From assembly GCA_030295235.1 (NCBI GenBank), contig AP026140.1, positions 1 through 64,000 of the forward strand: a DNA stretch of 64,000 nt. The letters are read 5' to 3'. The DNA is from Fistulifera solaris. Its lineage: Eukaryota. The notes beneath the pieces are model-generated. The model saw only the letters and a program-made list of their open reading frames with translations, had not been told where the DNA came from and did not search any database. This document shows positions 15,843 to 46,352 of this stretch, piece by piece; the stretch's first letter is position 1, and each line of letters opens with the position of its first letter. Made by a program: the position numbers and the translations under genes.

Positions 15843-18800
15843 TTAAGATTCTGTCATTAGAGAAGAAGGATGGCCAAGGGGCTTTTCGATCATGTAATTT
15901 TGTAGCGTACGAGTACAGTCGTCGATTGTTATGTCACACGAAGATAACCCTAGCAGAGTAAAATCCCAATTATCACAGCTACGGAACAAGCACCCAAGAG
16001 TTAACGTTCTGGTAGGAAATGTGTCGAAATCTGGAAACGTACTTCGAACTAACTCTTTTCCATCATCAGCATTAAGCATATTGAACGCAGCAGACAGAAT
16101 GTGGTCCGCTTGTTCACCAAGGTACGGGCCCAGTGCAAAGCATATGTAATGAACATCAGCTACAGCTTTGGGTAAAGCGACTTGGAACCGGTCTTCGGCG
16201 TAGGCAACAGAACGATCTTCCGATCGCGGATTTTGACGGTGTATGACGTCAAGAAGATGAGTATCTTTGTCCATCAAAAGGACCAAGGGCAGAACATTTT
16301 CACCGTTGGCTACCTTCCAATACAGTCCAATGCTAAGGTTTTCCGGAAGTGGTGCAGCATAGTCCTGGACTCGAATACAGTCACCCGAGCGCATCAATGC
16401 AGTTCTCTCAGCTCGTCTAGATATACGAGTGGCAGATCCTTGGGCAATCATCTGTATTTCTGGTTGCATACTGCCGAAATCACGAAATCTTTGATAACCG
16501 GCCGCCATGACTTCCAGGTCCCACGCTTTCCTGTTCTTTGTTCGAGACATTTGTAAGAGTACGACACACGTATCCGAAGCTGAAAGCCGAGGAACAAAAC
16601 GGCCGACTCCTTGACCGGTAATAGCATCTTTACACCGTATTTCTAACGACTCGATGTCTGAAAAAGAGTTGTTTCTGGCGGTCATCACAAGGCAGAGTGT
16701 TCCGACGTTCAACGGGACGTTTTCCAAATCAACTACTACCGTGTCGATTGTCGGTTGACCCGGTAACTCTAACCGTTCAGGAAAAACAATAGAGCGGTTG
16801 GGATTTGTTCGATTTGCGAAATATACTGATTCATCCCACAAAATGAGTCCGCTGCCTAGATCAGTGGCTACGAAACTGGTCTCCAAATACGGCCCCGACC
16901 TCCATGATAAATCTAGCGCTATCTTCGAATGCTGCCTCAAAATAAAGACATGGTCTGGCATCAAAACAGGATAGAACTTCGCATTCATCTGAACCTGAAC
17001 CTCTATTGAGCCACTCGCTCTGGCGCAATAGAACTCCGTCGCTTGCTCGGATCGCGCCGCAACAGTGTACCAACATGATGCCTCCTCTTTAGGCAATGAA
17101 AATAAAATGGCCCCCATAAAAGTTTCTTTCTTGATTTGACGATCAAAAGACGGAGTTCTAGCTTCTCGCTTCTATTAACAAGCTCTTTTGCCATATCCCC
17201 GCCAATTTCACAAACGATTGCGCTTTCTTTCCAAACAGGATTGCTTGATCGACGCGCAGGGCCCGTTTTACCGCAAGCCTTGCCACCAAGATATAGCTCA
17301 ACAAGAGGTTCTGCTGGCTTCATTTTACCAAATATATTGCGATCCAGTGACACTAAACCACGGCCCTGGGAGACGATAACAGTCAAGGTAGCGGATGACA
17401 TGATTGAGCTCATTGCATGTCCGTTAGTATTTGATACGGAAGAACTTTCCTGCGAGTGAAAACTCGAAAGAGAGGACTGACTAGCCTGAAGCGCAAATGA
17501 GGGGCTATCGGACGATAATTCGGTGCTTCGTATAGACTCGTTGGCGTCTTTCTCAATCGGAAAAGTATTTTCAAGCTTGCTATCTACGGTCACCCCCGCT
17601 TGCACCAACCCATATGTAGCTGAAGCACCAAAGGAATGCATAGATTGTGAATGAGGCTTTGTAGATTCGATATCTATCGTTCCTGTTCTTGGTCCAACGT
17701 AATGTAGCGATGAAGACAACCGGCCTGGAGACCGCTTTGTTACTGCCATTGCTGGCAAGACGGGAGTCGCTTTTGCGACTTTCAACGCCGGGTTTTCTTT
17801 TCCGTTTGAGATGAAGCTACTTGCATCCTTTGTGAATGATTGTTGAGCACTGATATTATTTTCGCTTCCCTTTGATGCAAGTATGCGTCGCGGACGCACA
17901 GCAGCGGTAACTTTCCGACTCCACAGAGATCTTTTGGTATTAGAACCAGCGCTCGACCCACTTGATGAGATGTTTGTGTGTATTGTTTGTCCATTGTCCG
18001 CTTCAGATGCTAAAGAATTTCGTTCGGGTATGTTCACTACCGTAAGTACTTCAGCGCTACAGACTGCATCATCAGAGGACTTCACACGACGAGGAGGGGC
18101 ACATTTTCTGCTGCTTGAGGTAACCTTATCAGCTGATATACTCCGCTTTGGCATTTTTTGCTGACCTAAATTATTTTCATGGATCTCTATACCTCCAACC
18201 GGTAGTAGCACAGGATTGACCGCATAGCCAGCCGATGAGGGAATGCGGTGAGTTTGTTTCTCGTCATGCTCTGCCTCGCTAGTGTCAACATCGCTCTCTT
18301 CAGATTTTTCATCCCTTTTGTCATTATGATCTTCCATTACAACGGGCAGTCCTGCTTCGATAACTGCAGGAGTGTCATCACTTGATTTCGGAAAGAATTT
18401 TGTTTGAAATAATTTCGATTTGACGCTCGGTGATTCAATGTGATGGCCTGGCGGATCACGAAGCGGATAATCTTGCCTTCCAGATCCCCTATCGCGACGC
18501 CCGCCGCGTCGTTTCCCCGGAAGATGAAGCGAAATCATCAGAAGAGTTCCATCGTTTTAACGGCCTTCTTTTTCGACTCCCATTGTCGAACCCTTCATGA
18601 AAAGACCAGTTTAACAGCTCTGGATTAGCCCATTGTACTCTTCTTCTTTCGTTGCGTACCACATGCTCTGTGCTTGACAAGCGAGTGCTAGAACTTATCG
18701 CCGACTTTACTGTTATTTCTTCGCCAGAACTCTTTATTATTCTTGGCCGCGAAGGATTCGAAGAAGAGTGCTCTCTCATCTCGCTTACAATTTCGGCGCT

Positions 18801-19139
18801 ATCTATTTCATCCACGAACGATGATTGGTGCTCATCATCTTGATCCATTTCTTCACTTTCCTCGCCTTCTGTGGCTGATTGAGGTTGCGAGGAAGTGTTT
18901 TCCTCTGGAGATTCGTAATCGTTTTCGAAACTATCTCCAGATTCCGTCTCGGACGACTCGTCAGAATATGATCTTCCGTAAGATTCATAGTCACTATCGA
19001 AGCTTTCTTCTTCTGATTCCGAGTAAGAAATGTCGTGTAAATGTGGCTCCGACGTAGAAAAGCTCTCTTCAAAACGCGTAGGCTCACTTTCAGAATAATC
19101 AGACACCATTGTGTTGTCTATTTCTTGTTTTTCCGTCAT
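15843..19139 (-). CDS. Disordered N-terminus + C2 + two TerD-like domains, paralogue 1 (frameshifts near 18500 and 17110)
   Basis: C2: LTVIVSQGRGLVSLDRNIFGKMKPAEPLVELY...NPVWKE...LELRL. TerD-like: LDLSWR...ESVYFANRTNPNRSI...VDLENVP and LSIGLYW...LLMDKDTHLLDVI...RSEDRSV...VHYICFALGPY. Confidence 0.7.
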
Positions 19140-19805: not shown

Positions 19806-22800
19806 TTACCAGATACTGGCAACTTTCAACAGAAAATCTTCAGGAATCATGATGCTTTCTTTTGGAACAGGCACCAGAGGAGGTAGTTTACATGGTAGTT
19901 GTTCAGGGAGATCTCCGGGTGTAGGTAATCGACTTCGTTTCACTTCTTCTCGGAAAGCATGTGCCACTTCGCTGCTGTTCGTCGCTTCTGTGGGACGTCC
20001 AATTACATAAAACATCCACGGAGAATCAACCGAGGTTCGAAGAAAACAACCTATCAGAGCTCCCGTCCAAGTGGTAGGTTCTGGTACGTCATAACTTATG
20101 GCAGCATGGTTGTCGCCACCAAAAATACGACAGTGCAAGCTCAACAAAGGATCAGCTACTTGTCCATTGTACGGGCCCAAAGAAAAACAAATGAACATAG
20201 TTCGGCTGGAAACCCGAGTCAAGTCCACTTCAATTTTGTCGCGGTAGTTTCCGAGCGGAATGTCATCATCGTCTTCCTCGCCTTCTCCGCCGCAATGCAG
20301 AACGGAATTGTCGCGACTATTTGGATTTTCAAACAAAACCTCGTCGAGTTTGTGAAAGTCCCTGTCAAGTAATGTTATCACACTATCAAGCCGAACGCGA
20401 TAGTGAGTGCCCCATTGTATTTGCACAAAAATCTCATTCGGTTCCAAGTAATCTTCAACTCTGATGCAACTTCCCGGCCTTAGCCACGCCGATCGCCGAG
20501 CCGGCGGAACGTTATCAGGAATAGTGTGTCGACAGAAGGCATGAAGCTGCGGTAATAAGCTTCCGCATTCTCGAATAACAGGATAACCTTGACCAATCGG
20601 ACACAGTTCCCACGAATGATCCTTCCGGGTAATCCGAAAGAGAACCATGCTGGTGTCCCCTCGCGACAATTCTGGGATGAATCGACATACTCCATCATCG
20701 GAATCAGTATTAATGCAGCGTAATTTTAGAACACCCAACGCAGCCAAATCATCGCGCGGCATGCATAATACCATAAACAGCGACATGACGCTCTTATGGA
20801 CCTTCTCCAGTTCCATTTGCCAAATTTCCTCGCCATCTGGACGGCAGTAAATCTTCTGGTCCGATCTCAGCACACCCCACTTCACTATGCTTTGGTTGGG
20901 GTTTACTGCCCGAGAGAAGTAGATGCTTTGATCTGGAATTACTTGACCGACTTCGTCCAAAGCCACACATGCTGACTCTGCGACTACTTTCTGATATCCC
21001 CAGGAGAAGCCGATTGTTATATGATTTGGCAATTGCAGCAAACTGCCTGGCACTACATCCGGAGCAGCCGTTGCGATAAAGTCAACTGAAACAAGAAGCT
21101 CCCCAGAAGCCCCAGGGCTGAACAAATCGTGGTGTCGTGAACGCTTCATAACACGATACCATGTAGCAGACTGACTTCCTACAACAGGAACCTGAACACA
21201 CCCCATGAATTCATCGTTCCCTAACATATCCTGGTCGCAAAGTCTTAACTCGATTTTCTCACCAGAGCGAAGTAAGGCTCGAGCTTGGTCACAGCCTAGT
21301 TTTACCTGAAACATGCCCCGCTGGAACACTGGATTTATTGTTTTATATACGGTATCACTCGTTCCGACACATTTCCAGTTATGGTTCTCAAAAACAAAGG
21401 CCTTGACAAAAGGATCTGACGTCGTAGGTCGTCCCAGTAAGTCTTTGTCCATCGCCACCAAGTTTCGACCCTGCAAAACATGTATCAGCATAGTGGCCGA
21501 TCCCATCGTTCGACCAATTACTTTGCGAGCCACAGGAGCGACACTTTCGGCTTCAGTAAGGTCATCTGATATGACTGGGGTGTTTCTCGGCAGCTTAGCA
21601 ATGGCTGCTCCTAACGATGCTCTTCGATTCATCCGACGCATCGCACTCGAACTGGCACCATGTGTTGTCGAGCCACGCCGACTTGCCATTGGGGCGACCT
21701 GCGTAGTCGTTGTAGCTTTATTTGTTGCATCTGACGTAGAAGCTTTGCGATAGAGAGTATTTGTGTTGGTTGTAGACATTCGCCTGGCAGCCGCTGTCAC
21801 AGATGCTCGCCGTCCACCACGTCCTGCGTCCGTTTCCGAGGTTCGGGATTGTTTCATGATTTTATCCCAATCCGAGGCAGCATTTTCTTTGCTTCCTTTT
21901 CTTTTTTCTTTTCCAAAATGGCTAGCATCCCCAAACTACTATCCGAGTTGGATCGAACCAAGACTGGCATACCATCCCCGGACTGCTTTCGATTACTTGT
22001 CCCGTTTTCTCTTGGCTCCAACATCTCCATGAGATTTTTGGAAGAATTTCGACGTCGCGGTTTTGTCTCATCATTAGGTTCTTTTAATCTTGGCCGAGAA
22101 GAGGATCGCTTCGGTGGCGATCCCTCTCCAGTACGAGGCCGTCTCTCTTCATCGCTGTGAGCACGTCGCGGCCGAGGCCGTGACGCCGGACGTGCTTCAC
22201 GAGGTTCACCATCACCCAGAGAATTGATGCGTGGCCGCGACGAGCTGCGTTTTCTTCCTTCCTCACTTCCCAATTCTCCTGTTTTGGGACGACGACGAGC
22301 ACCATTTTCAGAACGGCGCTGTTGATCCGAAGACTTTGACTTTTGCGAAGAATCTTTACTGACATTCGAAAAGAATTATCCGCCGAGTTTGTGGTTGATG
22401 AAGGTTTTTTCCTTGGTGATTTCGATGATGAAATTAGATTTTCTAGATTGGCGTCATCAGTACTTTCGGAATGCGTCGATGCTGTCAGAGACGTCGCAGT
22501 CGCCTTGCTAGATCTTTTTTGAGGTTTCTTGGCCTCTTCAGCGGTTCCATTCCCCTCTGTACGTTTTGGCTTAGAGCAAGAGCTGATTGTTTTTCGATTT
22601 GTGGGCGATAAATCAGTTTCTTCCTCATCAATTTTCTTTGATGCTGGACGAATTGCCTTGCTTCGCTTCTCCGGGCTATGGTGCAAAGACGTATGCAGCT
22701 CTTTATTCGCCCGCAGCTTTCCACTGTTCTTTAACAAATGAGGTGATGAATTTGAGCGCGATACTCGCCTCCGAGGAGCTTTATCTTCATCTCCAGTCTC

Positions 22801-22884
22801 AGGTTTGTCTCGAGGAGGTCGAGGACTCGAACGCTTCATCGGAGATGTCATCTCGGCAGACGACGAATCGCTGGCTGTGTTCAT
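19806..22884 (-). CDS. Ser/Arg-rich N-terminus + C2 + two TerD-like domains, paralogue 2 (frameshifts near 22280 and 21900)
   Basis: C2 with Asp ligands: QGRNLVAMDKDLLGRPTTSDPFVK...LCDQDMLGNDEFMG. Best-preserved TerD: LDSVITLLDRDFHKLDEVLFENPNSRDNSVLHCGGEGEEDDDD...KIEVDLTRVSSRTMFICFSLGPYNG. Confidence 0.8.
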
Positions 22885-23366: not shown

Positions 23367-25691
23367 TTACGGAGAGCCTTTCATAGCTTTGAGCAATTGG
23401 TCGGCAGGAATTACTCCAAACGAACTATCTAGATAAGATTTCGCAGGCACGTCAAACGGCTCAATCGAAAATAAGGACAAAGGTTTTGGTGATGGGCGGA
23501 GATTGTGAACATAGTCGCACAATGCGTGTAGCGAATTGCATTTCGTTGGAGAACTAATTGCCCAAAATTCCCAGGACGACTCATCTGACCGGTTGAGACA
23601 TCCGACTAGGATATGTTTGTAGCCACAATTGGAATCAATAGGACAGTCCGTAAAGCGAATGAGCTGAGCTTCCGTTGCTGGATCCCAAATATGGCAGGAA
23701 AATTCCGCTGTAGTAATGAAAGCTATTGTTTGAACTCTCATACCGATGCGGTGCAATTCTAATTCGATCATTTTTCGAGTCATTGTGGCACTACGATCTC
23801 GCGACTTTGTGTGATGCTGATCAATAACGTCAACGCGCTGACCCCGTTCATCTAAAAACAATGCCATGACATCCCCTTTCTTGCATCGAATGTCTACGAC
23901 CAAACTTGTCAGGCGTGGACAGTAATCAAGCAGCCGAATACATGTACCTGGTCGCATCCAGGCTGTCCGTGGAACACTCGCAGGATCTTTTATAACATCG
24001 CGCGCAGACATGTGCAGCATTGGTATCAAGGCCCCAAGATCCGATATGATCGGAAAAGATTTCATTAAAGCCATCATTTCAAATCCATCGGATTCGAAAG
24101 TTATTCGACCAAGCAAGGTGATTTGGCGCGCTGGAACTTTCATCCGACCCAGCCCTAATCGCTCTTCCAAAAAGCAAGTCACAGGTTCCGACGAGTCATT
24201 TACCGCAACAAAAAAGAGAGCCGCTATCGACGTCGGGAGATCTTTCAAATTGCACCGCAATAATGAAGATTGGCGCTCGAGTGACCCACTTTTGTTAGTT
24301 TGAGACGAATCACCCAAGCATTCATCCCACTGGACCAGCCCATGCTTCTTGGTGATTGCGATAGCCGAGATAGGAGAACTACAACGCCAGTAGCACGTGG
24401 TAGGAATATTCTCTAAAACCGAACCAGCGTCTAAGTCATGCATTGTAGACCCCTCTAGTGTAATATATGCGCAGACTTCAAATGGTGAATCTTCTATCGA
24501 GAAAAACCAAGATGAATCTGTGGTGTGCATAGGCAACGGTATCGACCCCAGAACCTGCTCACCATTGTAAACACGGAGCTCAATAGGTTTGTTATCCTCT
24601 TCATTCTTCAAAAAATTTTTAGCCTCGTCACAGGACAGCGACATCTGTAACGTCACAGGTGAAACCGAAGTACCCGAAATCGCTACTGGCTGTGATACTT
24701 TTTCGCTCCATTCGTTTTGGGACGTCAAGACGAATGCTTTGTACCACAATTGCGCCTTCTTCTGAATCCACTTTGAAGGTACGAGCGCTTGTTGAAGATC
24801 AATAGTGATGTTCAGTCCAGCTAGGGATCGCACAACGGTGCGGCGACGGGAAGGCGACCTTTTTGGACTAGAGGTAATCGATCTGTTTCGTGAATTCCGT
24901 TGAGCTTCATCACTAATGTTTTGATGGCAACTTTTGGCACTGCTGCGATGCTGACGAATCGACTGCTCTCTATGAGTACCTTGAGTGGATTGTGGTGTTT
25001 TGAGACTTTCCGACTCTGTACCAGCACTTTGGGATCTTCTCAAGATAGGCGGAGAGGCACTTTGCAATTGTGCCGATGAGTGTCGAGTCACCGGACGTGG
25101 TGTTACTGGAGTTGATGGACCTGACGTCGATAGTGTGGGGACTTGAGCACCAACATCACCCGCCCGAGGCATACTGAGTCGACGACGGGGACCGCCCGTG
25201 GACCGAATGGTTCGACGAGAAAAGGGCGAGTCGACAAGACTTCCGCGTCGGGGCGTCTGGTTACGCCCCGAATCCAAGCCACTTGCATTACCTGTCGAGG
25301 AACGACGGTGCATCGATCGACGCGGCGACGAGCTGCGCCGAGGACTGACTCGTTCAGTCGCACGAGTCGAATCGAGCGATGCTCGAATCGTACGTTGATG
25401 TCGTGATATAGATGGACTTCTTCTTTGTGATCGTCTGCTTTCTATTGGATCGCTTCTCTCCGTGTCACTGCTACTTTTCGACGATATTGACCTCGATCGA
25501 GCAGCTCGTGACCTCTCTCTTCCAGACTCAAATTCTTCACTGTGGAGGCCTTCATCTTGGCCCCCAATTGAAGTACTTCTCGTCTTTTTATCGGGTTGAT
25601 TGGAGCGCAACGCCGACCGACTTTCTTTCGGCTGCGATGTATTCTCTAGCTGATCATCTTTCATCATTTCTGTCGCCACCATTTGTTTCAT
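23367..25691 (-). CDS. Ser/Arg-rich N-terminus + degenerate C2 + TerD-like domains, paralogue 3 (intact ORF)
   Basis: Continuous ORF sharing IELRV, WDEC, LKDLPTSIAALFFV, DLGALIP, RTAWMRPGTCIRLLDY and KSRDRSA with paralogues 1 and 2. Confidence 0.75.
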   Translation of the reverse strand: MKQMVATEMMKDDQLENTSQPKESRSALRSNQPDKKTRSTSIGGQDEGLHSEEFESGRERSRAARSRSISSKSSSDTERSDPIESRRSQRRSPSISRHQRTIRASLDSTRATERVSPRRSSSPRRSMHRRSSTGNASGLDSGRNQTPRRGSLVDSPFSRRTIRSTGGPRRRLSMPRAGDVGAQVPTLSTSGPSTPVTPRPVTRHSSAQLQSASPPILRRSQSAGTESESLKTPQSTQGTHREQSIRQHRSSAKSCHQNISDEAQRNSRNRSITSSPKRSPSRRRTVVRSLAGLNITIDLQQALVPSKWIQKKAQLWYKAFVLTSQNEWSEKVSQPVAISGTSVSPVTLQMSLSCDEAKNFLKNEEDNKPIELRVYNGEQVLGSIPLPMHTTDSSWFFSIEDSPFEVCAYITLEGSTMHDLDAGSVLENIPTTCYWRCSSPISAIAITKKHGLVQWDECLGDSSQTNKSGSLERQSSLLRCNLKDLPTSIAALFFVAVNDSSEPVTCFLEERLGLGRMKVPARQITLLGRITFESDGFEMMALMKSFPIISDLGALIPMLHMSARDVIKDPASVPRTAWMRPGTCIRLLDYCPRLTSLVVDIRCKKGDVMALFLDERGQRVDVIDQHHTKSRDRSATMTRKMIELELHRIGMRVQTIAFITTAEFSCHIWDPATEAQLIRFTDCPIDSNCGYKHILVGCLNRSDESSWEFWAISSPTKCNSLHALCDYVHNLRPSPKPLSLFSIEPFDVPAKSYLDSSFGVIPADQLLKAMKGSP

Positions 25692-28670: not shown

Positions 28671-28816
28671 TGCATCGCTGCATCGCTTTCTGCATCACAC
28701 GTTTTTGCTCGAAAGGATCTCGGTCTTACGTCTTACCTGCTATAAAACTCGAAATGACCTCTCTTAAAATCTTTCGTAATATCTCATTCCTTTCCACTGG
28801 CTCAAAATAAACGATA

Positions 28817-36550: not shown

Positions 36551-36903
36551 CTACGCTCAGTGTCCTAGTGATATTAGCGCTCGGCATATTGCATCAATAG
36601 CTTAAGTACAAGGGTAGACTTTCTATCATCTATCATTGATCATTGGTGCTTATCTCAATTTTGTTGTGGCAATCCGTCTTTTTTCCCTTTCAACTTTTTT
36701 GAATTGCAGCCCGCTTTAGCATAATAAGTACATTTTACTGTACCTCTATTTGTACTGTTTAGCGTCACACCGGTCATAATGCATCCTCCGAAGAAAAAGT
36801 CTCGTCGTCCATTTTCGTTCTTCACTCATAATAACCGCAGCAACGAGGAGAATGAAATTCTTCCCGTTTCAAGTTCCTTCCTGCCCATAATATAGTTAAT
36901 AAC

Positions 36904-39471
36904 ATGGGAGAAGTCGACATTTCCTGTAGTCCCAGCGCAAAGGCGACAGTTCGGTTGGGAAGCGCTATAACGACACGATGCTCTCCTTCTGTATGGATCG
37001 ACGATGCAACGCTCGACACGGTATTCTGTCCTGTTGACGGTCTTTCCATTGCTTCCACTCTTGACGATGTATTCTGCTCAGCTCCAGCGGATAATTCGAT
37101 CGTTGAATCACCCACGCAGCGACGGCGAAAGCAGCTTGGCGAAGTAAGAAGCCCTCGACAAAGAGATCCACAATCTCCTCTTAAGAAAGACAACAATAGA
37201 CTTTTGTCACCGAGAACTCCGAGCGGGCGTTCTTCGAAAGACCTTTCAAAGCATCGCAAAGCGGAAATAAAGAGTAGCCCGTGGCATCCGAGTGCCTCGA
37301 AGCAACGAAATATCGAACAGGAGTCGTTAAAGTCGCCTCACGCTCAAGATGATATGATTCGGAAAAATTCACCTCTCAGAAGTGCTTCAAAGTCGCGATT
37401 ACAAAGTCTCGAAACAGCTGCCGAAATGCGAGGGACAACATTAAAGAGAAGGAGTTCGGTCTCACAAAGAAAGGGTGCCAGGGAGATGCGGAACGATGTA
37501 CTCGCCAACAACTCGAAACGAACACGAAGGTCGTCTCAAAAGTTAGCAATAATGAATCTTGAAAAGCGGATCGAACGGTCGGCTAGTTCACATGGACGAG
37601 GGAGTTCCGAGCCTCGTATACGAGCTTTGAGACAGCAAGAGAAGGATGATGTTGTCGAAGGTGGGGATCGATCATCACGAACACGCAGTTTAGAGAGGAA
37701 AGTAGATCAGCTCCAAAGCACTCAAAAGGGAGGCAATAATGTTGTCAGTGATGATAAACTGGGCAAGGAGAAGAGAAAGGATATGTCAATCGCCCCAAAG
37801 CGATCAAAAGTCGTGCCTGGGCGAAGTAGATCGGCGTCGGGGTTAGAAAGGTTAGCTGGTCAAACAAGAAGAGCACTTAATAAACGAAGTAGCTCGGATT
37901 CTCGAATCGCACAAACCGATCGTGATCACGAAAGTCGTACATCCAGCGAAAACGTGCAGAAGAAAGTGTCTCCTCAGAGAAATCGTTCGAAAGGGCGCAC
38001 AGAAAGTTTGCAAAGTCCGTCTGGACGCTCGCGGCGATCACCTAAAAGAAGGAATTCCAGTCCACGGGTTGAAAACACCGCGGGCAAATTTGTTAAAGGA
38101 ATTACCGACTCTTCCCAACGCGCAGCGAGATCCTTGCAACGAAATAATTTGAAAGCGAAAGGTAACAATGAAGTCACTAGGTCCGAATTTTCGAGAAGTT
38201 CGCACAGACGAAGAACTTCAAAGTCGCCCATCAAAGATTTCTCTTTACAACAAAGGATCGATGTTAGGGAGAAATCACAACGCACACGTGGCTCACATCC
38301 TACGAACAGTTTTCGAGGTTATATCGAAGAATCAGTAAAGGGAAAAAGTGAGCGGAGGAGTATTTCACAAGATAAAAGGGAAAAGTGGAAACATCGCGGC
38401 TCAAAATCAAGGATCGTTCTTCCCTACGATACAGACAAAGGTGATAGCTCAAAGAGCTCCAACGAGCCGGGCAACTTGATATCTACCGACCTGCAGTTGA
38501 AAAAACAGGGGCGCAAAATGCAAGATCTAGGGTCATGGACAGACACAATGGTCGGTTCCGAATCATCGCCGCACACACATTCATCTGACGTAAATGATGC
38601 CAGCCCCAAGTCAGGGACTGTAAACAATTTTCAAACTGATAAGGGGTATCTAATAAGACCCTTTTGGCGAAAAAATCATCAAAGTACAGATAAGAAAAGC
38701 CCTGCAGCAAGACGCGGCACAAATCGTGAGTTGGTATCGTCACAAAATCTACAATATCCCTCACAGAATTTCGAGCATGAACCGGAGAATAATAACCGTC
38801 AACACGGTACAAAGTCAACAAAGAAAAAGACGTCTTTTCCCATGCTGTACTCAAATTTCCAACCGCTCTCCGGGGAACTTGTCGGGGATGCGAAGTTATC
38901 ACAGCATGAGTTGTTTATGACACGAGAGCACTTTCCCACTGCGTTGGAAGCATTAGAAGCATCAATAACTCCGAAAAAGAGGGAAAGATTGGCACTTTTA
39001 CAAACTGCCGAAACAAATAATGAGCAACACACACCTGCGTCTCCACGAGGACGAATTAAGAGTTTGAGTCCAACGAGATTTATCAAGAAGGCATCTAAAC
39101 GATTCAGTAGCGCGGTGGCGCAATTTTCTGAACGCGTGCTACCAGTTGGTACACGCGAGTCTTCGAGTAGAAAAGGGGAATATGCTCAGAACAATATAAC
39201 TCTATTACGAGAGGAAGCTCCCCGGGAGCCTGCTGTCCAATCTCAAGAAAAGACTCTTGCTTCAAGCATGCAAAGCAATATCATAGACGACGGCTCAAAG
39301 GAAGACTCAATCACGTTGAAAGAAGTTAAAGGAAGCCCCAGCCCAAAGCAATCAACACTCTCACGCGCCAGACCCCGCAGTAGATCAGCGGGTCGTTTGC
39401 AGCCAGAAAACGATAAGGCGACGGCTTCCACCCAACGGACAAACAATGGCAGCAATCAGCACCCGCATTAG
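36904..39471 (+). CDS. Hypothetical large Ser/Arg/Lys-rich disordered protein
   Basis: 855-aa ORF; the exact ends are uncertain because indels are possible at both ends. Confidence 0.6.
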   Translation: MGEVDISCSPSAKATVRLGSAITTRCSPSVWIDDATLDTVFCPVDGLSIASTLDDVFCSAPADNSIVESPTQRRRKQLGEVRSPRQRDPQSPLKKDNNRLLSPRTPSGRSSKDLSKHRKAEIKSSPWHPSASKQRNIEQESLKSPHAQDDMIRKNSPLRSASKSRLQSLETAAEMRGTTLKRRSSVSQRKGAREMRNDVLANNSKRTRRSSQKLAIMNLEKRIERSASSHGRGSSEPRIRALRQQEKDDVVEGGDRSSRTRSLERKVDQLQSTQKGGNNVVSDDKLGKEKRKDMSIAPKRSKVVPGRSRSASGLERLAGQTRRALNKRSSSDSRIAQTDRDHESRTSSENVQKKVSPQRNRSKGRTESLQSPSGRSRRSPKRRNSSPRVENTAGKFVKGITDSSQRAARSLQRNNLKAKGNNEVTRSEFSRSSHRRRTSKSPIKDFSLQQRIDVREKSQRTRGSHPTNSFRGYIEESVKGKSERRSISQDKREKWKHRGSKSRIVLPYDTDKGDSSKSSNEPGNLISTDLQLKKQGRKMQDLGSWTDTMVGSESSPHTHSSDVNDASPKSGTVNNFQTDKGYLIRPFWRKNHQSTDKKSPAARRGTNRELVSSQNLQYPSQNFEHEPENNNRQHGTKSTKKKTSFPMLYSNFQPLSGELVGDAKLSQHELFMTREHFPTALEALEASITPKKRERLALLQTAETNNEQHTPASPRGRIKSLSPTRFIKKASKRFSSAVAQFSERVLPVGTRESSSRKGEYAQNNITLLREEAPREPAVQSQEKTLASSMQSNIIDDGSKEDSITLKEVKGSPSPKQSTLSRARPRSRSAGRLQPENDKATASTQRTNNGSNQHPH

Positions 39472-39869
39472 CTTCGGGAATCCGTAGATGTAAATGACCC
39501 CGACATTCGGTATTCTTCTTCGATTTAGATGATGAGTCAGCAAGAGTCGTTTCGCAATGACTGGGGAATCTTGCTCTTGCAGGTCGAACCGACATGGCTA
39601 CAAGGACGGTTATCATATTCTGGAAGTCAGCTGGTGCGCTGTTGTTTGTTTTTTATATGGTGGAATTGTGAAAATGATGTTTCAAACTTCCTTTATGCAA
39701 TTTGTTAATGAAAGATATCTTTTAAAGGTTAATAAATCGGCTACCGTCGCACGGGCTTGATCTGCTCTATTTTTCAATTTGCATATTCCTCTCATTGCGC
39801 ATCTAGCTCCAGAAACCTCTTCTTCGCTTGCGAGCAATCGGCCGACTCTGGACCCAGTGACACAATGTG

Positions 39870-40934
39870 TCAGTGTGATGTGAAAAAAGAAAAAGCAAGC
39901 CGTTGCATACTCATCTGCGATTGTTGTGCGGTTAATTGCAACATCGATCCGTGGTCGATGTCGATAGCTAATTTAGCAACACCATGGGCAAAACGGTTCC
40001 ATTTGCATAAGGAAGCGATGGACTGAATCCAGAGATGTTGAGACAACCCAACTAAATTAACCTGTTTTATGCAACCATTCTGCCGCAAACTTTCTCGCAA
40101 TGAATTTGCTCTTCCCTTATCGAACCGGCTTCCTACATGAAATGTAGGCGTCTCTACCGTACATGTTGCCAAGGCGGTCATCCACTGGACCCATTGCGAT
40201 AGTGCGAAACAAGCCATTACATCCGTTCCAATCTCTAAATGTTTGAAGTGTAGGTAACGTTGTACCCATTTCAAAAAAGTCGAGGACGCATTACCCTCCC
40301 ATTGATCGGCTACCTAACCGATATCAATAATATTTTGTTTCCTTGCGAAATCCATTATGTCTGACAATACTCCTAGTTGTGAAGCAACACCGAATCCGCC
40401 ACTGATTCGAAGGGAGGACACATGACAATCTGATGGTAGGATGCATCCATAATCAAACCAGCAGTCGCGTAGCTCCAAGAATTTTGCACGAATCATCCAT
40501 GGAACCGGCAAATCGTTCGAAAAGTGCAAATTCAATAAAATGTGTCGGTCGACAACGATGTCTGCTAACGAAGTAAAGAAGTCGTTTGAGGTATGCCATT
40601 GAAACGGAAAGATTTGTTCGATTTGCAGACAAGCCAAAGGTGTTGTTCGACGTGCCAAGCTGCTCAAGAAAATGCTTTCAGCCTTGCGATTGGGAAAAGC
40701 CGTACGTCTACGGAACACAATGACGGTCGTAGACTGGGCCCAGATTGATAGAGACTCCTCTGTCGACTGCTCACTGATAAGTGGTAAAGTGAATATTAGA
40801 TTGCTTTCGTCGCCGCTCTCCTCGCCATCATCCTCATCATCCTCATCGCTACTCCAAGACGTAAGATTTCTCAGAAGACGAGACTCCTTCCAATGACATG
40901 TAGCCTCGAACCCCTGGCTTAACCGATTGAGCAT
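39870..40934 (-). CDS. Hypothetical protein, possibly a degenerate RNI-like/LRR family member (frameshifted)
   Basis: Consecutive minus-strand ORFs 40314-40934 and 39870-40274; the tail SLRESLRQNGCIKQVNL...LCKWNR resembles the C-cap of diatom RNI-like proteins (recall only). Confidence 0.35.
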
Positions 40935-43431
40935 TTGAACTACTCCTTAAAAACTCTTCATTCATTCTGATGTAGCAAAAAAGAAGTGTCCATGACAGCA
41001 AACGCGTTGCCGAGTATAGTAAAGGAGAAGCTTTACCAGGTACAGGCAAGACATCGATCGTGCCACAACAACCCACAACAACTAAAAACGCGTCCATTTT
41101 CAAAATTTCGAAATACTCATCGGACAACAAGACTACTTTCTAGAGAATTGTAGTGAGTACCGAATACTTTTTCCAACTTTACACCCTAACCTTAAGGTAG
41201 GCGCTTGGCGCTTGATGCGAAAGAATTACCTGGTACTTGTATAGATCTCGTGGACGTTGCCCGTGATTGAAACCCATTCGGACTAACACCTTCAACATAA
41301 GTGCCACCGACTGAATCACATAAGAAAAATTGAGTCCAGGAATCAATAGAGTGATTCATATTTTTTTGGCTAGCCTGTCTACCTTAAACGCTCGCGCTTA
41401 CTTATATTTATATTATTCGCTTTGGAAATGGGAGTCTCGCGTCTCGCGAGCTTTGGTGTGTGCAATAGGGATACACAAAAACAAACCACGAAAAGTAAGA
41501 ACATGTGGGTCGATATTGGATTCATAGGAGCGAGTAAAGAATAGGTTGCTGCTTTCGCTCTTCGCACTGTTCATTGCACTTGGTGCGACGTTTGACGTGA
41601 TCAAAGTGAACACGAAATGCACGTCACCGTCCCCCACCGTCACAGGGACGAAAGACGAAATTGAGAACTGAGAAGGGTGATTCTGGGAGGGAACTTCGAT
41701 GTTACTCGTTACTTCGTATGATTAGCTAATCGTGATCCATTATCCATTATCCATTCCCAGTCCGGGCTTTTTTTCTAATAAACGCTAAACATTAAACAAT
41801 AATGTGACATGTGACTGTATCTGACACAACGTGAAGTCATTAGACAAAGGTTAGATGTCATACGATACACTTAGCTTTATACGACTTCACTGGGGAGGAC
41901 GATACAAGATAAAAGTAACGATAGACGATAGTCTTTCAAAATTATCAATAGCCGGTAAGGTAGCTAAGGAATAAGGAAGTACGGCTTTCCCGGTTTCCGG
42001 TCTTTACGATCACTTGAATACTTTGTACGTACATAAGATCTTATAGGAACCTAGAGTTACGAGTTACGGGTTACGGGATACAACATACAACATACAACTT
42101 GCAACTGGCCGCATTCTGGATTCTTGATTTCTCTACTCTCTACAGTATTCTGCCCTACAGTACGAATCCTGGCTGACTTCTCACACTCTCTATGATAAAG
42201 TACTGCGGTTCCTACGAGTTCGTGCAAAGCGAAAAGCGAAAGAGCCGCGATTAGCGATTGCCGATTGCCGCGATGGACGTACATAGTCGTGTTTTATTAC
42301 CTGGTATCCGTATCTCTGGTCATTGCTTTGCATCTGAACCCTCCACTTTTTCATTTGCTCAGGTATCAGCAGACGACCACAAGCTTTTGGAAATCAAACG
42401 ATTGACCAAGCATGCACGTCGTTTCGCCAATTACCAAAGTTTACTCTCGCAGTTCTTCTGCACCGGACTTGGTTTCCAACAGGTCCAGAATAATGATCCA
42501 AACGAAGTCAACTAGCGAGAAAACCAGCCGTGATCTGAGCCCAAACAAAGGTGTTAGTTTTGGATCCGTTTTACAACACAAGATCTACAAAGGAGTAGAT
42601 CCAGAAGGCTGTGTGCGGTATCTAACGAGGACGAAAAAGAATCAAAGTCTCAGGGACGTGTGGGATTCTCTTGAAGACTACGAGGCAGAGAAAGAAGCTG
42701 AGAAGGACAGCGTAATACAGCGAAAATGTGTTTCTTTGCATCAATGACACTTCACGAAAATTCACCCTTCAAAACACCACATCAGTGACACCAACAAGTA
42801 GGATTTCGCAAACCGATTTTATAATTTTTTTATTTTCGCCCAAATCGTATAGTCTCATCTCTTTTAGTCATATACCATGCTCGCTTCAATGAAAGAGATT
42901 ATTACCGAAGTCTGTTTGATAGGGAGAATCATTTCATCGCCAACATCCTTTCGTCCTTGAGACTCGAGACGGTGGATCGTATTTTCTCTTTCTTGCGATG
43001 TTGCGCTTTTGTTTTGTCGTTTGTTGTAGAGGCAAGTGTCGCAGCGTGATGACTGTAGCGTTTTTATGTAACCGCTTTTCTTACAGCTTACAGTATTGCA
43101 TCTCGGGACCCGGACCCGGGACTGAACGCAGCGGCTTGTCTCTTTTTCAAACCCGTAAACGAAAAACACGTAAATACATTTTCGGCGAACGCAACGAGAG
43201 ACGAGAACACAACTTTTCTGGGGCAGTTCGAGAACAGAAGTAAGTTGATTATATAAAGTCCGCATCGAGAAGCGAGCTGGATGGCTTCTGTCTTCCGTCG
43301 TTATTATCTCGTCTTTTCAAAGCGGAGCTCAGCTTTTGCGTTTTCATTTGAACACACAATATAAAGTTGTTTTCGTGTCACCACAGCAATAGAAACGAAA
43401 ACGACGCATGTCATTGAGCTATTAACATGAA

Positions 43432-46352
43432 ATGGCAATCACTACAGCAATGACTTCTTCAAATGGATCAAAGAATGTGAAGCAAAGAGGAGCAGATCCA
43501 CCGGGAAGATCGAGAAAAAAGCCGGACGCCAATAGCGAAAATACAGACGGAGTTTCTCCGGATGGAGTGTTAGACAATGAGCTTTTCGCAGAAAGACGTT
43601 CCAAGAGTCGAGGACGCTCATTGGGTCGATCTGCTAGTAGCAGGGGATTGCACAGAACAACTAGCAGTCGCTCCCTTGCAAAATCTCGGAGTAGCCGGTC
43701 TCTAACAGCTTCTAAGGATAAGAACGGTAGGGATGGAAACGAAAGATCAAAGAGCCTAGGAAGGGGTGAAAGAGGAAGATCGAAGAGCCGAGGGAGAAAA
43801 AAAGACAGCCACGGAAGACGGTAGGTCAAAAAGTCGAAGAAGAAAAAACAGAACGCGGTGAAAGGTCGAAAAGTCGAGGAAAACTAGATCAGAAAAGAGC
43901 ACAAGAAACAATAACCTCTCCACATCCTGACGGAAATGGAGATCAGGTACCAAAAAGCGATCGCGTCGCTAAGATGGAGGTGACATCAGCTAAATTGACG
44001 CAGTCACCATGTCCCTTGACCTTAGAAAAGACACCGAGCCCGGTCTGGTTCAAATCGTCGCAAATCTCCATCTATACAAGAACTTGATGCTCCTCTGATT
44101 CCACCGATACGAAATGTTGAGTCGATCCCAACGTTATCACAAAAATCCGTGAACAAGCTAACGGCCGATACAAACGTTGAACCACCTGCCGTGCAACGAG
44201 GTGTAAGGCGAGTCGTCAGCACACGCCGACAGTACGACGACTATAAGGTCTCCAAAGCGATCCCAATCGACCGAGGATATCAAGATGTCTCCAAGAAGGA
44301 ACGCCGCCAACGCCCCGCCCTCTTTTTTTTGAGAGAGAACGCACCCTCCAATGTACCAGTAAATACTTTGCCAAGACAACGCCCCCAGTAGTTCAGATGC
44401 TTTCGACAAAGTGAGTCTTTCGAAAAACTTTCAGGCGACGGATGATAATCCTTTTTACCAAACAAAACGATCGATGAGCCCAACTCGAATACCGTCAAGT
44501 ATACGCAATCTACAAAAGTTCGCGATAAAGGATAATTCTGCTCTACCAAAGTCCGCTTATCAACCGCGAGAATCGCCGAAGACCAATACACAAACCCTGG
44601 TGGCATCCGCGTCATTGTTTGTAACTGTTTTGGAAGGGCGTAAGCTCGTCCCTATGCAGCGCAACATGCTTGGTTTTAAAACACATTCTCATCCTTACGT
44701 TGAGGCCTACGTTGACGGGAAACTGCTTGGTAAACGTTGCATGCTTACCCGAACCGTCAATCCAGCATGGAAGAGCGGCAATTCGTTTTCTTCCCATTAT
44801 GACGGCACAACTGCCAAAGAAAAGGCTTCTCGCAATGAGGAAATAGAATTACGTGTTTATCATCTTGGAAAGGGTGGTGTGTCTGTATTCATGGGAGCCG
44901 TGCGCATTCCTCTTTTAACACACGGTCGAGCAGAGTGGTACCCTGTGCAGCAACGCTCCGCTCTGGAAAGTGGATTGTATTGCCTTTCTGCCTCGGGAGA
45001 GCTGAAAGTGCAAGTGAATTTTACTGCACATTCTTATCCAGAATTAAAGCCTGGTCACGAGTTACCGATCTCTGGAAATGCTGAGATATCACTCAATCTA
45101 TCTTGGTCCGGCGATTCCTCCCTCGAAGCGAGCTGCGTCGCCCTTGACAGAAACAATGGACACGTGCTATGGAAAGAATGCGTATACTTTCGCGAATCGG
45201 ATTAACTTGAGTAGCTCTGTCGCACGACCGGAGGTGCGAGATCATAACGATGAGGCCACACGAGATTCGTTGTTATTCGATTTTGGAATGGTTCCGGGAG
45301 AATGTTGCAGCTTTTTATTTTGTTTTGACGATTCGCGACAAATCATGCACGCTCTCTGACATTCAATCCTTTCAACTTACTATCAGAAATGAGTCGACAC
45401 GCGGAGAGGATTAGGGCGTCTATCGGTCAATTTAGCCTCTAAGGACACATCAGCTATATTGTTGCGCATCGCTCGTTCGACCATGGGGACAGTCAACACT
45501 TGGAAACTTACAACAATTATCAAAGGGTATAAAGTATTCGCGAGTTTGGAAGCCTTTTACCCCAACTTCAAGATCTCTCGAGCGATATTCTGCCACAGAT
45601 AGGAACTCCTACTGAGCCGAACAGCACTGATGCGATGTGGCGACAGTCTTCAACTTCTGGATTACGTACCCGATCATCTACCAAGCAAATTGGTGACTGG
45701 CTTCTTCTGGAAGGTCAAAAACAAGGAACCATTGAAAGTCGAAATATCTCTCCTCGATGAAGAGTTGCGGGAGGTAGACGCGATTCACAGGACACAACCA
45801 GGGGCACTCATGAGCCAAGGCGTTCTATACTCCCGGGAGGAAACGAAGAATACGAGAAGTTCGAGATAGCCTTTTCCCAACTATCGTTAGATGTACATTA
45901 CATCTGCTTTGTGCTAGGTCCTTGTAGCCGTCAGAAAGTCGATGATATCGAAAATGTGGCTTGTCATATTGTAAACCCCGCTTTGGGGGGCTGAGTTAGC
46001 GATGTACATTGTCAAACTTTGAAAGTGTTCCCACAAAATTGGTTGGCCTAGGATGCTTCTACAAGACTGGAAAAGGATGGAGCTTTACCATTCTTGGTTT
46101 ATGTTCGCTGATACAACCTTTGCGGGACGTCTGAGCGAAGCCACTCACATATTCGAAAATCCCCTGGAACCCGCCATCTCACTGCCGCACCCTCGACTTC
46201 TCAAAAGCGTCATGCCGCCAGCAATACCACTGCCACCGCCAAGACAGCTAGCGTTATCGGACACAGTGGAAGCCTATCACAAATTTAATCACGGACAAAA
46301 CGTGTGTACCTCTACTTTACTTACAGTACGCAGACAATCAGAGAAATCATAA
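43432..46352 (+). pseudogene. Ser/Arg-rich + C2 + TerD-like paralogue 5, heavily frameshifted (pseudogene or poor consensus)
   Basis: C2: LFVTVLEGRKLVPMQRNMLGFKTHSHPYVEAY...VNPAWK...IELRV...FMGAVRIP. TerD-like: SCVALD...VLWKECVYF; MRCGDSLQLLDYVPDHLPSKLVTGFFWKV...LLDEELREVDAI. Broken into many short ORFs. Confidence 0.65.

Follow-up and report, generated by a model that had tools for sequence, protein, structure and literature searches.

Five diverged C2-TerD-TerD paralogues in Fistulifera solaris have lost most TerD Ca2+-ligand residues

Results

Five intact paralogues at one locus

Five genes within one 64-kb stretch of Fistulifera solaris DNA (the window) raise the questions of whether they encode real proteins joining a disordered N-terminus to a C2 domain and two TerD domains, and whether such proteins sense Ca2+, as the first-pass annotation proposed. 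A tblastn search of the whole window with the annotated g2 protein P0001 (FisN_6Hh458), to which g2 is 100% identical, finds exactly the five loci that this annotation had placed and no others, with E-values of 8.7e-40 for g1, 0 for g2, 2.2e-16 for g3, 3.9e-32 for g4 and 6.2e-26 for g5 (Table 1). All five genes are intronless. Starts and stops derived independently for all five genes coincide with the earlier ones. A high-copy repeat block, with a contig word depth of 544-1722 versus ~11-19 in the flanking genes, sits where the cluster switches from minus-strand to plus-strand genes. The only transcript trace among g1-g5 is one 165-base contig of RNA run X4 (28816-28980) at the 5' end of g4; an X4 contig also covers the Ser/Arg/Pro-rich frame between g3 and the repeat block at a depth of 23.7.

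Table 1 Features of the C2-TerD-TerD cluster, in window coordinates
Feature	Position	Strand	Description
g1	15843-19139	-	~581-aa acidic, Ser-rich disordered N-terminus
g1 TerD-TerD and tail	15846-17144	-	
g1 C2, N-terminal part	17147-17395	-	
g2 (FisN_6Hh458)	19806-22884	-	464-aa Ser/Arg/Lys-rich N-terminus
g2 tail	19809-19985	-	
g2 TerD2	~19986-20489	-	
g2 TerD1	~20535-21032	-	
g2 C2	~21063-21500	-	
g3	23367-25691	-	single open frame; 289-aa Ser/Arg-rich N-terminus
g3 TerD2	~23499-23969	-	
g3 TerD1	~24006-24413	-	
g3 C2	~24444-24824	-	degenerate
Neighbouring frame	26221-27114	-	Ser/Arg/Pro-rich disordered protein, not a family member; no folded domain detected
Repeat block	27605-28647	.	high-copy direct repeats, families D1-D4
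g4	28817-31140	+	131-aa N-terminus
g4 C2	29210-29596	+	large insert
g4 TerD-TerD	29595-30968	+	
g4 tail	30970-31137	+	
Open frame, g4-g5 interval	31502-32344	+	Ser/Arg/Lys-rich; no Pfam match
Open frame, g4-g5 interval	32911-34167	+	Ser/Arg/Lys-rich; no Pfam match
Open frame, g4-g5 interval	34592-36550	+	Ser/Arg/Lys-rich; no Pfam match
Open frame, g4-g5 interval	36856-39471	+	Ser/Arg/Lys-rich; no Pfam match
g5	43432-46352	+	394-aa basic N-terminus
g5 C2 and start of TerD1	44606-45190	+	
g5 remaining TerD1, TerD2, tail	45192-46349	+	nine short frame pieces

Inspection of the reading frames reveals the apparent frameshifts reported earlier: two each in g1 (near 18515 and 17145), g2 and g4 (near 29594 and 30965), none in g3 and at least 11 in g5. 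The breaks lie in homopolymer runs. Those of g2 fall in T and A runs, at each of which the annotated P0001 has one extra base and so reads through both. Independent contigs restore the frame at seven sites, namely 30965 in g4, where contigs of both X1 and X2 lack one base, and 44035, 45191, 45538, 45985, 45998 and 46105 in g5, where each indel shifts the frame as needed; one such contig, X1 record 8, differs from 7.9 kb of the window by 22 gaps and just 6 substitutions. On a single contig of 57,073 bp in the second subgenome, the homeologues of g1 (P0127, FisN_6Lh459), g4 (P0129, FisN_6Lh453) and g5 (P0130, FisN_6Lu455) are intact across the frameshift sites. P0127 reads through 17145 and is 85% identical to g1 over the C-terminal part, P0129 reads through both g4 sites, and P0130 is 86% identical to g5; the g3 counterpart P0131 is 68% identical over its C-terminal part. 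The genes are conserved beyond the second subgenome in related organisms, with intact counterparts in other assemblies. The frameshifts of the window are assembly errors at homopolymers, corrected by independent contigs, P0001 and the homeologues, and g1-g5 are real, intact paralogues.

Domain architecture and fold

All five genes have the proposed architecture, with a strength of Pfam support that differs between them. TerD exceeds its Pfam gathering score of 25.3 bits in g1 (53.8), g2 (58.9) and g4 (29.8), and C2 exceeds its score of 22 bits in g2 (46.6), g5 (40.0) and, barely, g1 (22.3). The C2 domain of g4, whose pieces in the window score below threshold at 15.9 and 14.7 bits, reaches 31.9 bits in the intact homeologue P0129, and P0130 scores 61.4 bits for TerD and 29.4 bits for C2. 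Membership of g3, the most diverged copy, is carried by alignment and fold, since no Pfam match exceeds threshold (TerD 12.3 bits); g2 is the least diverged. The colinear C-terminal blocks described by the first-pass annotation are visible in the alignment (xELRL/V, WDE(C/S)xY, DFGxLxP, RxAxxRxGxCIRxxDY, SxDxSV and xICF), with g4 departing from the RxAxxR...DY block, and structural Gly, Pro and Trp residues are nearly invariant across the family.

AlphaFold models of g2 (pLDDT 85.9, pTM 0.77) and g3 (pLDDT 90.3, pTM 0.80) are confident; their fold is partly inherited from the family, since the input alignments contained canonical relatives. A failure of the C-terminal halves to match TerD had been named in advance as grounds for rejecting the family, and both models match it at Z 13-20. 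By VIA-align, g2 matches SCP2 (Z 19.7), RSP1 (Z 16.2, 343 residues), 3ibz (Z 15.9) and C2 domains (Z ~15.7), and g3 matches SCP2 (Z 19.9), RSP1 (Z 16.9, 299 residues) and 3ibz (Z 14.3). Among C2 domains, that of g2 aligns with Munc13-1 C2B (Z 15.7, 29% identity), and the best structural match of g3 is CEP120 C2A (Z 11.3, VIA-align).

The N-terminal heads, 131-581 aa long, contain 14-21% Ser and 6-17% Arg. Since BLAST finds no significant pair among the five at E<=0.01, their description as unrelated and low-complexity is fair. No hydrophobic segment is seen in them, the highest 19-residue Kyte-Doolittle mean being 1.48. RRxS-type motifs number nine in g2, five in g3 and only 0-1 in g1, g4 and g5, counts to be read knowing that composition alone would yield such motifs in Ser/Arg-rich sequence. 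Five further frames in the cluster share this composition (14-21% Ser, 11-15% Arg) and carry no domain. Comparison of heads and neighbouring frames gives no similar pair with the low-complexity filter and one pair (E 0.004) without it; g3 and two of these five frames nevertheless have RR(R)L(V)SM(P/T)(K/R)xG as a common motif.

Relation to a diatom-wide family

A family search shows a C2-TerD-TerD protein of ~590 aa to occur across diatoms, with 286 matches, and both Pfam domains are present in 119 of the 120 of these that were listed. The organism names given for canonical matches are all those of diatoms, and Bacillariophyta is the commonest taxon in the Atlas clusters. Among 1.84 billion representatives, just six clusters are of the window type (455-1688 bits), followed by canonical forms at 325 bits. 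The canonical proteins carry only automatic labels ('TerZ', 'stress response protein SCP2', 'C2 domain-containing protein'), and the literature searched yielded no functional paper on diatom C2-TerD-TerD proteins. The earlier remark that no characterised protein of this architecture is known therefore stands as far as that literature goes, but the architecture itself is common in diatoms; the family is a widespread one that has been labelled rather than characterised.

Canonical proteins, represented by P0007 of Craspedostauros australis and P0042 of Seminavis robusta, are colinear with g1-g5 across C2, TerD, linker, TerD and tail, and have the same linker motifs, DFGxLxP and RxAxMRxGxxIRxxDY. 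In contrast to the window genes, they begin at C2 and have no disordered head. P0007 scores 184.5 bits for Pfam TerD, compared with 30-59 bits for window genes and 31.7-61.4 bits for intact counterparts. Window genes are 27-36% identical to one another and 24-30% identical to canonical proteins. In a tree built by a quick method from 14 window-type rows plus P0132 and 35 canonical rows, the window type splits from the canonical type at 98% SH-aLRT, a grouping to which long-branch attraction could contribute and within which relations are poorly defined; the branches of g3 and g4 are 2.17 long versus a median end branch of 0.3. Judged by sequence, the window genes form an offshoot of the canonical family on long branches. 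Their position on one side of this branch and their low mutual identity fit the proposal of an ancient amplification at this locus, after which the copies diversified. No F. solaris canonical copy is named among the matches listed, and if the species has none, g2 may be the orthologue under relaxed constraint.

Loss of Ca2+-ligand residues

Ligand retention was scored against 32 canonical rows. For C2, five aspartate positions were used, which we take to be Ca2+ ligands from synaptotagmin C2A. All five are kept in 30 of the 32 canonical rows; g1 keeps three, g2 five, g3 one, g4 two and g5 none. For TerD, 14 motif positions were scored for acidic or Asn residues, following the residues that, in the available text of PMC8779313, make up both Ca2+ sites of Klebsiella TerD. 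Canonical rows keep 12-14 of the 14 in 27 of 32 cases. With positions in diverged loops being alignment-dependent, g1, g2 and g4 keep six each, g3 two and g5 five, and eight counterparts of the window genes keep 3-7. The site residues of TerD-type Ca2+ sensors are thus present in canonical homologues and largely gone from the genes for which a sensor role had been suggested, and only g2 retains the complete set of C2 aspartates. Because of that alignment dependence, and because the TerD2 loop of g2 carries the acidic stretch EGEEDDDD, a potential Ca2+-binding site, loss of Ca2+ binding itself is a prediction from these residues. By its C2 domain, g2 may still be Ca2+-responsive. The canonical protein, which keeps every synaptotagmin-type C2 and bacterial TerD ligand residue type, probably binds Ca2+ at several sites and acts as a peripheral membrane protein.

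Discussion

With moderate confidence, we read the window genes as Ca2+-insensitive scaffold or adaptor derivatives ('pseudo-sensors') of the canonical C2-TerD-TerD protein, a reading to which ligand loss, retained core and disordered heads together lead. Local duplication from the diatom-wide protein would have produced five paralogues that each gained a Ser/Arg-rich disordered N-terminus and kept a compact three-domain beta-sandwich core with its inter-TerD linker. Most Ca2+ ligands disappeared from the two TerD domains and, except in g2, from C2 too. The folded core could then act as a docking platform for protein or membrane, comparable to the structural part that tandem TerD-like domains have in radial spoke protein 1, and the head would carry regulation, probably by phosphorylation at RRxS-type sites. 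We infer all three functional elements, namely Ca2+ insensitivity, scaffold role and phospho-regulation.

The original model, read as making each of the five a membrane-recruited sensor of Ca2+ or stress whose C2 and TerD domains both bind Ca2+, is unlikely. The best structural match of the g3 C2 domain, CEP120 C2A, is not known to depend on Ca2+. The TerD positions are mostly lost in genes and counterparts alike and the C2 ligands reduced to 0-3 of five in g1, g3, g4 and g5, against which stand the full ligand sets of canonical members, the intact C2 aspartates and acidic TerD2 loop of g2, and the Ca2+ binding of Klebsiella TerD described, by citation of its structure paper, in the available text of PMC8779313. 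Decay of the duplicates into pseudogenes is very improbable and already largely refuted: the many frame breaks of the window, above all in g5, are assembly errors, and the loss of ancestral ligand residues goes with intact counterparts in the second subgenome and other assemblies, confident models and family-wide structural residues.

The proteins could instead help to build a large assembly of the cytoskeleton or membrane skeleton as structural subunits, with tandem TerD-like beta-sandwiches as building blocks as in the radial spoke head (RSP1) or the trypanosome flagellum attachment zone (FAZ28/FAZ30); we consider this doubtful, to the same degree as the sensor model. Raphid pennate diatoms are not known to have flagella, so the same flagellar complexes would be impossible here. 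A common fold does not show function, and evolution as fast as the longest branches imply is unusual for core structural subunits. Such a role would nevertheless accord with the superposition of the whole TerD pair of g2, and likewise that of g3, on RSP1, with the match of RSP1 to a TerD-TerD profile (E 1.8e-10) and its imperfect ligand motifs, like those of the window genes, and with the TerD domains of FAZ28 and FAZ30 given in the accessible part of PMC10953051. This alternative overlaps the scaffold reading, the main difference being that it predicts a stable, stoichiometric complex. Less probable still is that the main function lies in the Ser/Arg-rich heads (nuclear or RNA-associated, RS-domain-like, or in condensates), with the core a passive or regulatory appendage. 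The five domain-free frames of the same composition and the motif shared by g3 and two of them would then mark one functional neighbourhood, but heads and neighbours are alike only in composition, and between homeologues the core is 84-88% identical and the heads, where both can be aligned, 67-78%, making the core the more constrained part.

Chlamydomonas RSP1, an 814-aa flagellar structural subunit, is the only solved eukaryotic protein found to superpose on the two TerD domains together (Foldseek E 1.2e-13); identity is ~16%, a profile search showed no C2 match in it, and F. solaris presumably lacks flagella. Synaptotagmin, Munc13, ferlin-type, CEP120 and PI3K C2 proteins have no TerD domains. 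Pfam TerD is carried by Dictyostelium capA/capB (CABP1) and trypanosome FAZ28/FAZ30, for which the accessible portions of PMC3188802 and PMC10953051, respectively, report no C2 fusion and which are likened here by description only. Together with RSP1, these proteins mean that the tandem TerD-like arrangement is not unprecedented in eukaryotes. Bacterial TerD proteins (Klebsiella pneumoniae 2kxt/2kxv, Streptomyces coelicolor 3ibz, the SCP2 chain of 9a6r) share the per-domain beta-sandwich fold, and sequence-profile matches to them reach E 3.9e-31. They are single-domain proteins of ter stress operons that bind two Ca2+ through DxD and GDNxTGxGxGDDE, whereas the window proteins, missing most such ligands, are tandem, fused to a C2 domain and a disordered head, and eukaryotic.

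Intact cluster genes share a colinear C2-TerD-TerD core

Each of the five cluster genes (g1-g5) encodes a disordered N-terminal head followed by a folded core. A tblastn search of the whole window with P0001 (hypothetical protein FisN_6Hh458 of Fistulifera solaris, 1026 aa, NCBI) and two canonical relatives, the latter belonging to the ~590-aa C2-TerD-TerD proteins of diatoms, returned exactly five loci. These independently found loci coincide with the five genes placed by the first-pass annotation (feature table). The open frame 19806-21935 (709 aa) is 100% identical to P0001, and none of the five genes needs an intron.

Inspection of the alignments reveals a colinear order of C2, TerD, linker, TerD and tail that is common to g1-g5 and the canonical proteins. 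At the Pfam gathering scores (TerD PF02342, 25.3 bits; C2 PF00168, 22 bits), TerD is recovered in g1 (53.8 bits), g2 (58.9), g4 (29.8) and P0130, the intact homeologue of g5 (61.4), with two TerD stretches each in g1, g2 and P0130 and one in g4. C2 is recovered in g2 (46.6 bits), g5 (40.0, within its longest frame piece) and g1 (22.3), while two pieces of g4 score 15.9 and 14.7 bits, below the threshold, and its homeologue P0129 scores 31.9 bits. Neither domain passes in g3 (TerD 12.3 bits; C2 none), nor does Pfam match TerD in its counterpart P0131; despite these sub-threshold scores, g3 aligns block by block with the other four genes.

The number of frame changes is two each in g1, g2 and g4, none in g3 and at least 11 in g5, all located in or beside short homopolymer runs. 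For g2, P0001 corresponds to one additional base in a T run and one in an A run. When contigs of four public sequencing runs were aligned to window positions 26401-46400, 65 indel places were found in 20 kb, and 7 of the 12 listed fall on frame junctions, where the independent contigs change the frame as needed (feature table). One contig of run X1, spanning 37054-44944, differs from the window by 22 gaps versus only 6 substitutions. P0130 is uninterrupted across the four of the other five g5 junctions that lie within its range, and alignments of g1-g5 to their counterparts are gap-free at the frame junctions. The frameshifts are assembly errors. Given the contig indels at the junctions and the uninterrupted reading of P0130, the five genes are to be treated as intact, and a pseudogene reading is rejected on the homopolymer-run errors, the independent contigs and the intact counterparts. 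Many assembly frameshifts here are errors, and a frameshift by itself is no ground for calling an open frame of the window a pseudogene. A ubiquitin-activating E1 (ThiF, FCCH, 4HB, SCCH) and a CBM6 + GH5 cellulase each appear split over two overlapping frames, and these splits are probably further assembly frameshifts.

Positions of cluster genes and associated features in the window
Feature	Position	Strand	Basis or remark
g1	15843-19139	-	tblastn, head 581 aa
g2	19806-22884	-	tblastn, head 464 aa
g3	23367-25691	-	tblastn, head 289 aa
g4	28817-31140	+	tblastn, head 131 aa
g5	43432-46352	+	tblastn, head 394 aa
Ser/Arg-rich neighbour frame	26221-27114	-	open frame
Ser/Arg/Lys-rich neighbour frame	31502-32344	+	open frame
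Ser/Arg/Lys-rich neighbour frame	32911-34167	+	open frame
Ser/Arg/Lys-rich neighbour frame	34592-36550	+	open frame
Ser/Arg/Lys-rich neighbour frame	36856-39471	+	open frame
Motif RR(R)L(V)SM(P/T)(K/R)xG	~25187	-	g3 head
Motif RR(R)L(V)SM(P/T)(K/R)xG	~26406	-	26221-27114 frame
Motif RR(R)L(V)SM(P/T)(K/R)xG	~32237	+	31502-32344 frame
Contig-restored frame junction	30965	+	g4
Contig-restored frame junction	44035	+	g5
Contig-restored frame junction	45191	+	g5
Contig-restored frame junction	45538	+	g5
Contig-restored frame junction	45985	+	g5
Contig-restored frame junction	45998	+	g5
Contig-restored frame junction	46105	+	g5
Direct-repeat block	27605-28647		units 156-581 bases apart
X4 (RNA) contig	42080-42844	+	skips 42211-42299 (89 bases)
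Ubiquitin-activating E1	1323-3531	-	two overlapping frames
CBM6 + GH5 cellulase	53438-55503	+	two overlapping frames

The TerD fold is predicted twice in each modelled core

Structure models of the g2 core (564 aa, mean pLDDT 85.9, pTM 0.77) and the g3 core (485 aa, mean pLDDT 90.3, pTM 0.80), built on alignments that included canonical relatives, each present three beta-sandwich domains. In VIA-align comparisons, g2 residues 145-320 match SCP2 (9a6r_B) with Z 19.7 and rmsd 2.5 over 170 residues, and g2 matches 3ibz with Z 15.9. For g3, residues 286-440 (TerD2) match SCP2 with Z 19.9, and residues 138-273 (TerD1) reach Z 13.5 to 2qng and 13.3 to 2qz7. Since both models match TerD structures, the assignment of the C-terminal halves to TerD made from sequence at first pass is upheld, with the fold present twice. 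The C2 domains of the two models have different neighbours: g2 residues 1-146 match many Ca2+-binding C2 domains at Z ~15-15.7 (Munc13-1 C2B, 15.7), and g3 residues 1-127 lie closest to CEP120 C2A (Z 11.3) and PI3K C2 domains rather than to those of synaptotagmin type.

A further match extends across both TerD domains. Residues 160-525 of g2 align to 7jtk_A (radial spoke protein RSP1) with Z 16.2 over 343 residues, and g3 does so with Z 16.9 over 299 residues. Foldseek with the g2 model ranks 7jtk_A at the top (E 1.2e-13, 502 aligned columns). A profile restricted to the TerD-TerD portion, searched against PDB sequences, also recovers this 814-aa entry, annotated as 'Flagellar radial spoke protein 1' (E 1.8e-10), through stretches 13-218 and 350-398. 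Chlamydomonas RSP1 is also represented by 7jrj_F.

The cluster belongs to a diatom-wide family

To place the cluster, 1.84 billion cluster representatives were screened with a profile built from g1-g5, which matched 1228 of them at E<=1e-3; of these, 314 reached E<=1e-10 and 68 reached E<=1e-30. The six strongest matches, scoring 455-1688 bits, all belong to the window type, and canonical proteins come next, from 325 bits. Three of the six are the F. solaris proteins FisN_6Lh459 (GAX17156, homeologue of g1), FisN_6Lh453 (GAX17153, that of g4) and FisN_6Lu455 (GAX17149, that of g5), which share one 57,073-bp contig; this contig is the homeologous cluster of the second F. solaris subgenome. The other three come from further assemblies. 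There, P0002 (g2-like) and P0131 (g3-like) are each reported from a single contig of 8827 bases, and P0005 (g2-like) and P0128 (g1-like) each from a single contig of 10266 bases. Judged solely by the equal contig sizes within each pair, gene adjacency is probably conserved in these assemblies.

Core identity to the counterparts is 84-88% for g1, g2, g4 and g5, and 65-68% for more distant g1-like and g3-like proteins. The core is better conserved than the heads, which are 67-78% identical to their counterparts where comparable. Within the cluster, g1-g5 are 27-36% identical to one another and 24-30% identical to P0007, a canonical protein of Craspedostauros australis. Structural Gly, Pro and Trp residues are nearly invariant and linker motifs are conserved in canonical and cluster proteins alike.

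A search with P0007 returned 286 matches at E<=1e-3. PF00168 and PF02342 occur together in 119 of the 120 matches listed, most of which are 560-660 aa long, and the organisms named among them are all diatoms (Craspedostauros, Seminavis, Odontella, Skeletonema, Thalassiosira, Chaetoceros); two more organism names are abbreviated 'Staur...' and 'Syned...'. The nearest three ESM Atlas clusters are C2/TerD clusters, with Bacillariophyta the commonest recorded phylum for two and the third lacking recorded taxa. Automatic names in the sources include 'tellurium resistance protein TerZ', 'stress response protein SCP2' and 'C2 domain-containing protein', and the first of these is misleading on diatom proteins. 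The first-pass annotation had allowed that the architecture might prove to be a common, already characterised eukaryotic family; the former holds for diatoms, and as to the latter, no functional study of diatom C2-TerD-TerD proteins was found among the papers listed by literature searches, where a single paper mentioning both TerD and C2 domains dealt with the Leishmania FAZ. Given the wide diatom matches, the automatic names and this search, the architecture is common in diatoms, already visible in databases and functionally undescribed. No canonical copy bearing the name Fistulifera occurs among the listed 120 of 286 or the listed 120 of 226 matches, which does not imply its absence.

Fifty rows were placed in a quick maximum-likelihood tree, where 14 window-type rows and the metagenomic sequence P0132 are split from the other 35 with 98% SH-aLRT support. 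The branches of g3 and g4 are long, at 2.17 changes per site where the median end branch is 0.3, and long-branch attraction may have contributed to the window-type grouping. Within it, g1 and g5 are sisters (99% SH-aLRT). These sisters lie outermost, one at either end of the cluster and on opposite strands, and g3 and g4 are innermost. An old inverted duplication that started from a smaller array would fit this layout.

Ca2+ ligand positions are mostly lost in the cluster proteins

The residues of Ca2+ sites Ca1 and Ca2 of Klebsiella TerD are given in PMC8779313 and correspond to the motifs DxD and GDxxTGxxxGDDE. The HMMER alignment of P0007 to 2kxt places the Klebsiella site residues at DLD and GDNRTGEGDGDDE motifs, and each TerD domain of P0007 carries both motifs. 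Fourteen TerD motif positions (seven per domain) and five C2 loop aspartates were then tabulated for 45 sequences, comprising 32 canonical proteins, g1-g5 and eight window-type counterparts (ligand table). The five C2 positions, in loops 1 and 3, are ones we take to be acidic Ca2+ ligands of the synaptotagmin type.

Occupancy of Ca2+ ligand positions
Sequences	TerD acidic/Asn	C2
Canonical (32 rows)	12-14 of 14 in 27 rows	5/5 in 30 rows
g1	6/14	3/5
g2	6/14	5/5
g3	2/14	1/5
g4	6/14	2/5
g5	5/14	0/5
Window-type counterparts (eight)	3-7 of 14	

Among g1-g5, only g2 keeps the full C2 set, as scored at positions of the synaptotagmin motif. Since the exact residue scored in diverged loops depends on the alignment, and the TerD2 loop of g2 still holds an acidic run, these counts do not measure Ca2+ binding but argue strongly that the cluster proteins have lost it. 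The first-pass interpretation thus divides: the domain architecture and TerD fold stand, whereas Ca2+ sensing of the TerD type is not supported, with only 2-6 of 14 ligand positions left in g1-g5 versus 12-14 in 27 of 32 canonical rows. The remaining five canonical rows have lost motifs in a single domain (TerD1 in P0147, P0150 and P0153; TerD2 in P0133; P0137 in part), and these independent losses indicate that degeneration recurs in the family. P0138, from another lineage of the canonical family, has lost its C2 ligands (1/5); all six are diatom or metagenome sequences.

Disordered heads and the Ser/Arg-rich neighbourhood

The heads of g1-g5 contain 14-21% Ser and 6-17% Arg. BLAST finds no mutual similarity among them, and a crude hydropathy scan (maximum 1.48) reveals no signal peptide or hydrophobic/membrane segment. 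Sites of the RRxS type number nine in g2, five in g3 and zero or one in g1, g4 and g5; sequence of this composition is expected to contain such sites. On the minus strand, g1-g3 and one neighbour frame face away from plus-strand g4, four further frames and g5. All five neighbour frames are rich in Ser, Arg, Lys and Pro (14-21% Ser, 11-15% Arg), a composition of the same type as the g2-g5 heads; each holds 6-9 RRxS-type motifs and none has a Pfam match. With low-complexity filtering on, no homology among heads and neighbour frames is detected; searching a tiny database with filtering off yields one weak pair, the g4 head with the 34592-36550 frame (E 0.004). Across all six reading frames, the window holds three copies of the motif RR(R)L(V)SM(P/T)(K/R)xG, which presumably fits the RxxSxP form of a putative 14-3-3 mode-1 site.

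Contigs of run X4 touch four of the five neighbour frames. Over 26401-46400, one X4 contig of 165 bases falls on g4 and none on g5, uncovered parts being uninformative. X4 behaves as RNA, one of its contigs being spliced and ending in a poly-A run at 42844. That contig represents a spliced and polyadenylated transcript whose open frame is ~110 codons long.

Between the minus- and plus-strand sets lies a direct-repeat block, where contig word depth is 544-1722 (neighbouring genes, ~11-19) and loose ends and joints are numerous. This high-copy element sits exactly at the flip in gene orientation. The flanking genes are ordinary ones and encode the ubiquitin-activating E1, two GT8-like proteins, a chromo/RING protein, a sulfotransferase, the CBM6 + GH5 cellulase and a metallo-beta-lactamase fold protein.

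Possible roles and comparison with known systems

The cluster represents a Ca2+-site-degenerate variant, restricted to one lineage, of a diatom-wide family that is known but uncharacterised. Canonical proteins of ~590 aa begin at the C2 domain and conserve the ligand motifs, whereas g1-g5 carry heads of 131-581 aa and degenerate ligand positions. Ca2+ signals serve diatoms in the sensing of nutrients, osmotic stress and grazers, and we know of few downstream Ca2+-binding effectors in these organisms. Built from three Ca2+-binding modules and conserved from one diatom genus to another, the canonical protein is a candidate effector open to test. The graded ligand loss in g1-g5, from the C2 sites kept in g2 to almost none in g3 and g5, amounts to a natural experiment that could tell apart roles of the fold that need Ca2+ and roles that do not.

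A kept core, lost ligands, gained heads and the stronger conservation of core over heads lead us to infer, at about even odds, that the cluster proteins are no longer Ca2+ sensors of the TerD type and that the core has become a docking platform with regulatory heads. The core would dock proteins or membranes and the heads would carry the regulation, and in g2 the C2 domain may still bring the protein to membranes in response to Ca2+. A more elaborate account, which we consider unlikely, holds the canonical protein to be a diatom-specific multi-site Ca2+ effector and the cluster proteins to be Ca2+-blind decoys that take up the same docking sites, on membranes or proteins, by means of the kept core and linker and are steered by phosphorylation of their heads. 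Were the decoy account true, a Ca2+ pathway of this lineage would receive a second input, driven by kinases, and the tandem TerD-like module would be a scaffold that recurs in eukaryotes, in diatoms as well as in the radial spoke head and the flagellum attachment zone.

For the docking platform, RSP1 offers a comparison. In the literature searched, no paper linked the radial spoke to TerD. To our knowledge, raphid pennate diatoms have no flagella. The tandem TerD-like domains of RSP1 and of the g2 and g3 models superpose as a pair, and the RSP1 motifs are imperfect, with FDLS in place of DLD and EGDD in place of GDDE. RSP1 sets a precedent: its tandem TerD-like domains, imperfect sites included, serve as structural parts of a eukaryotic assembly.
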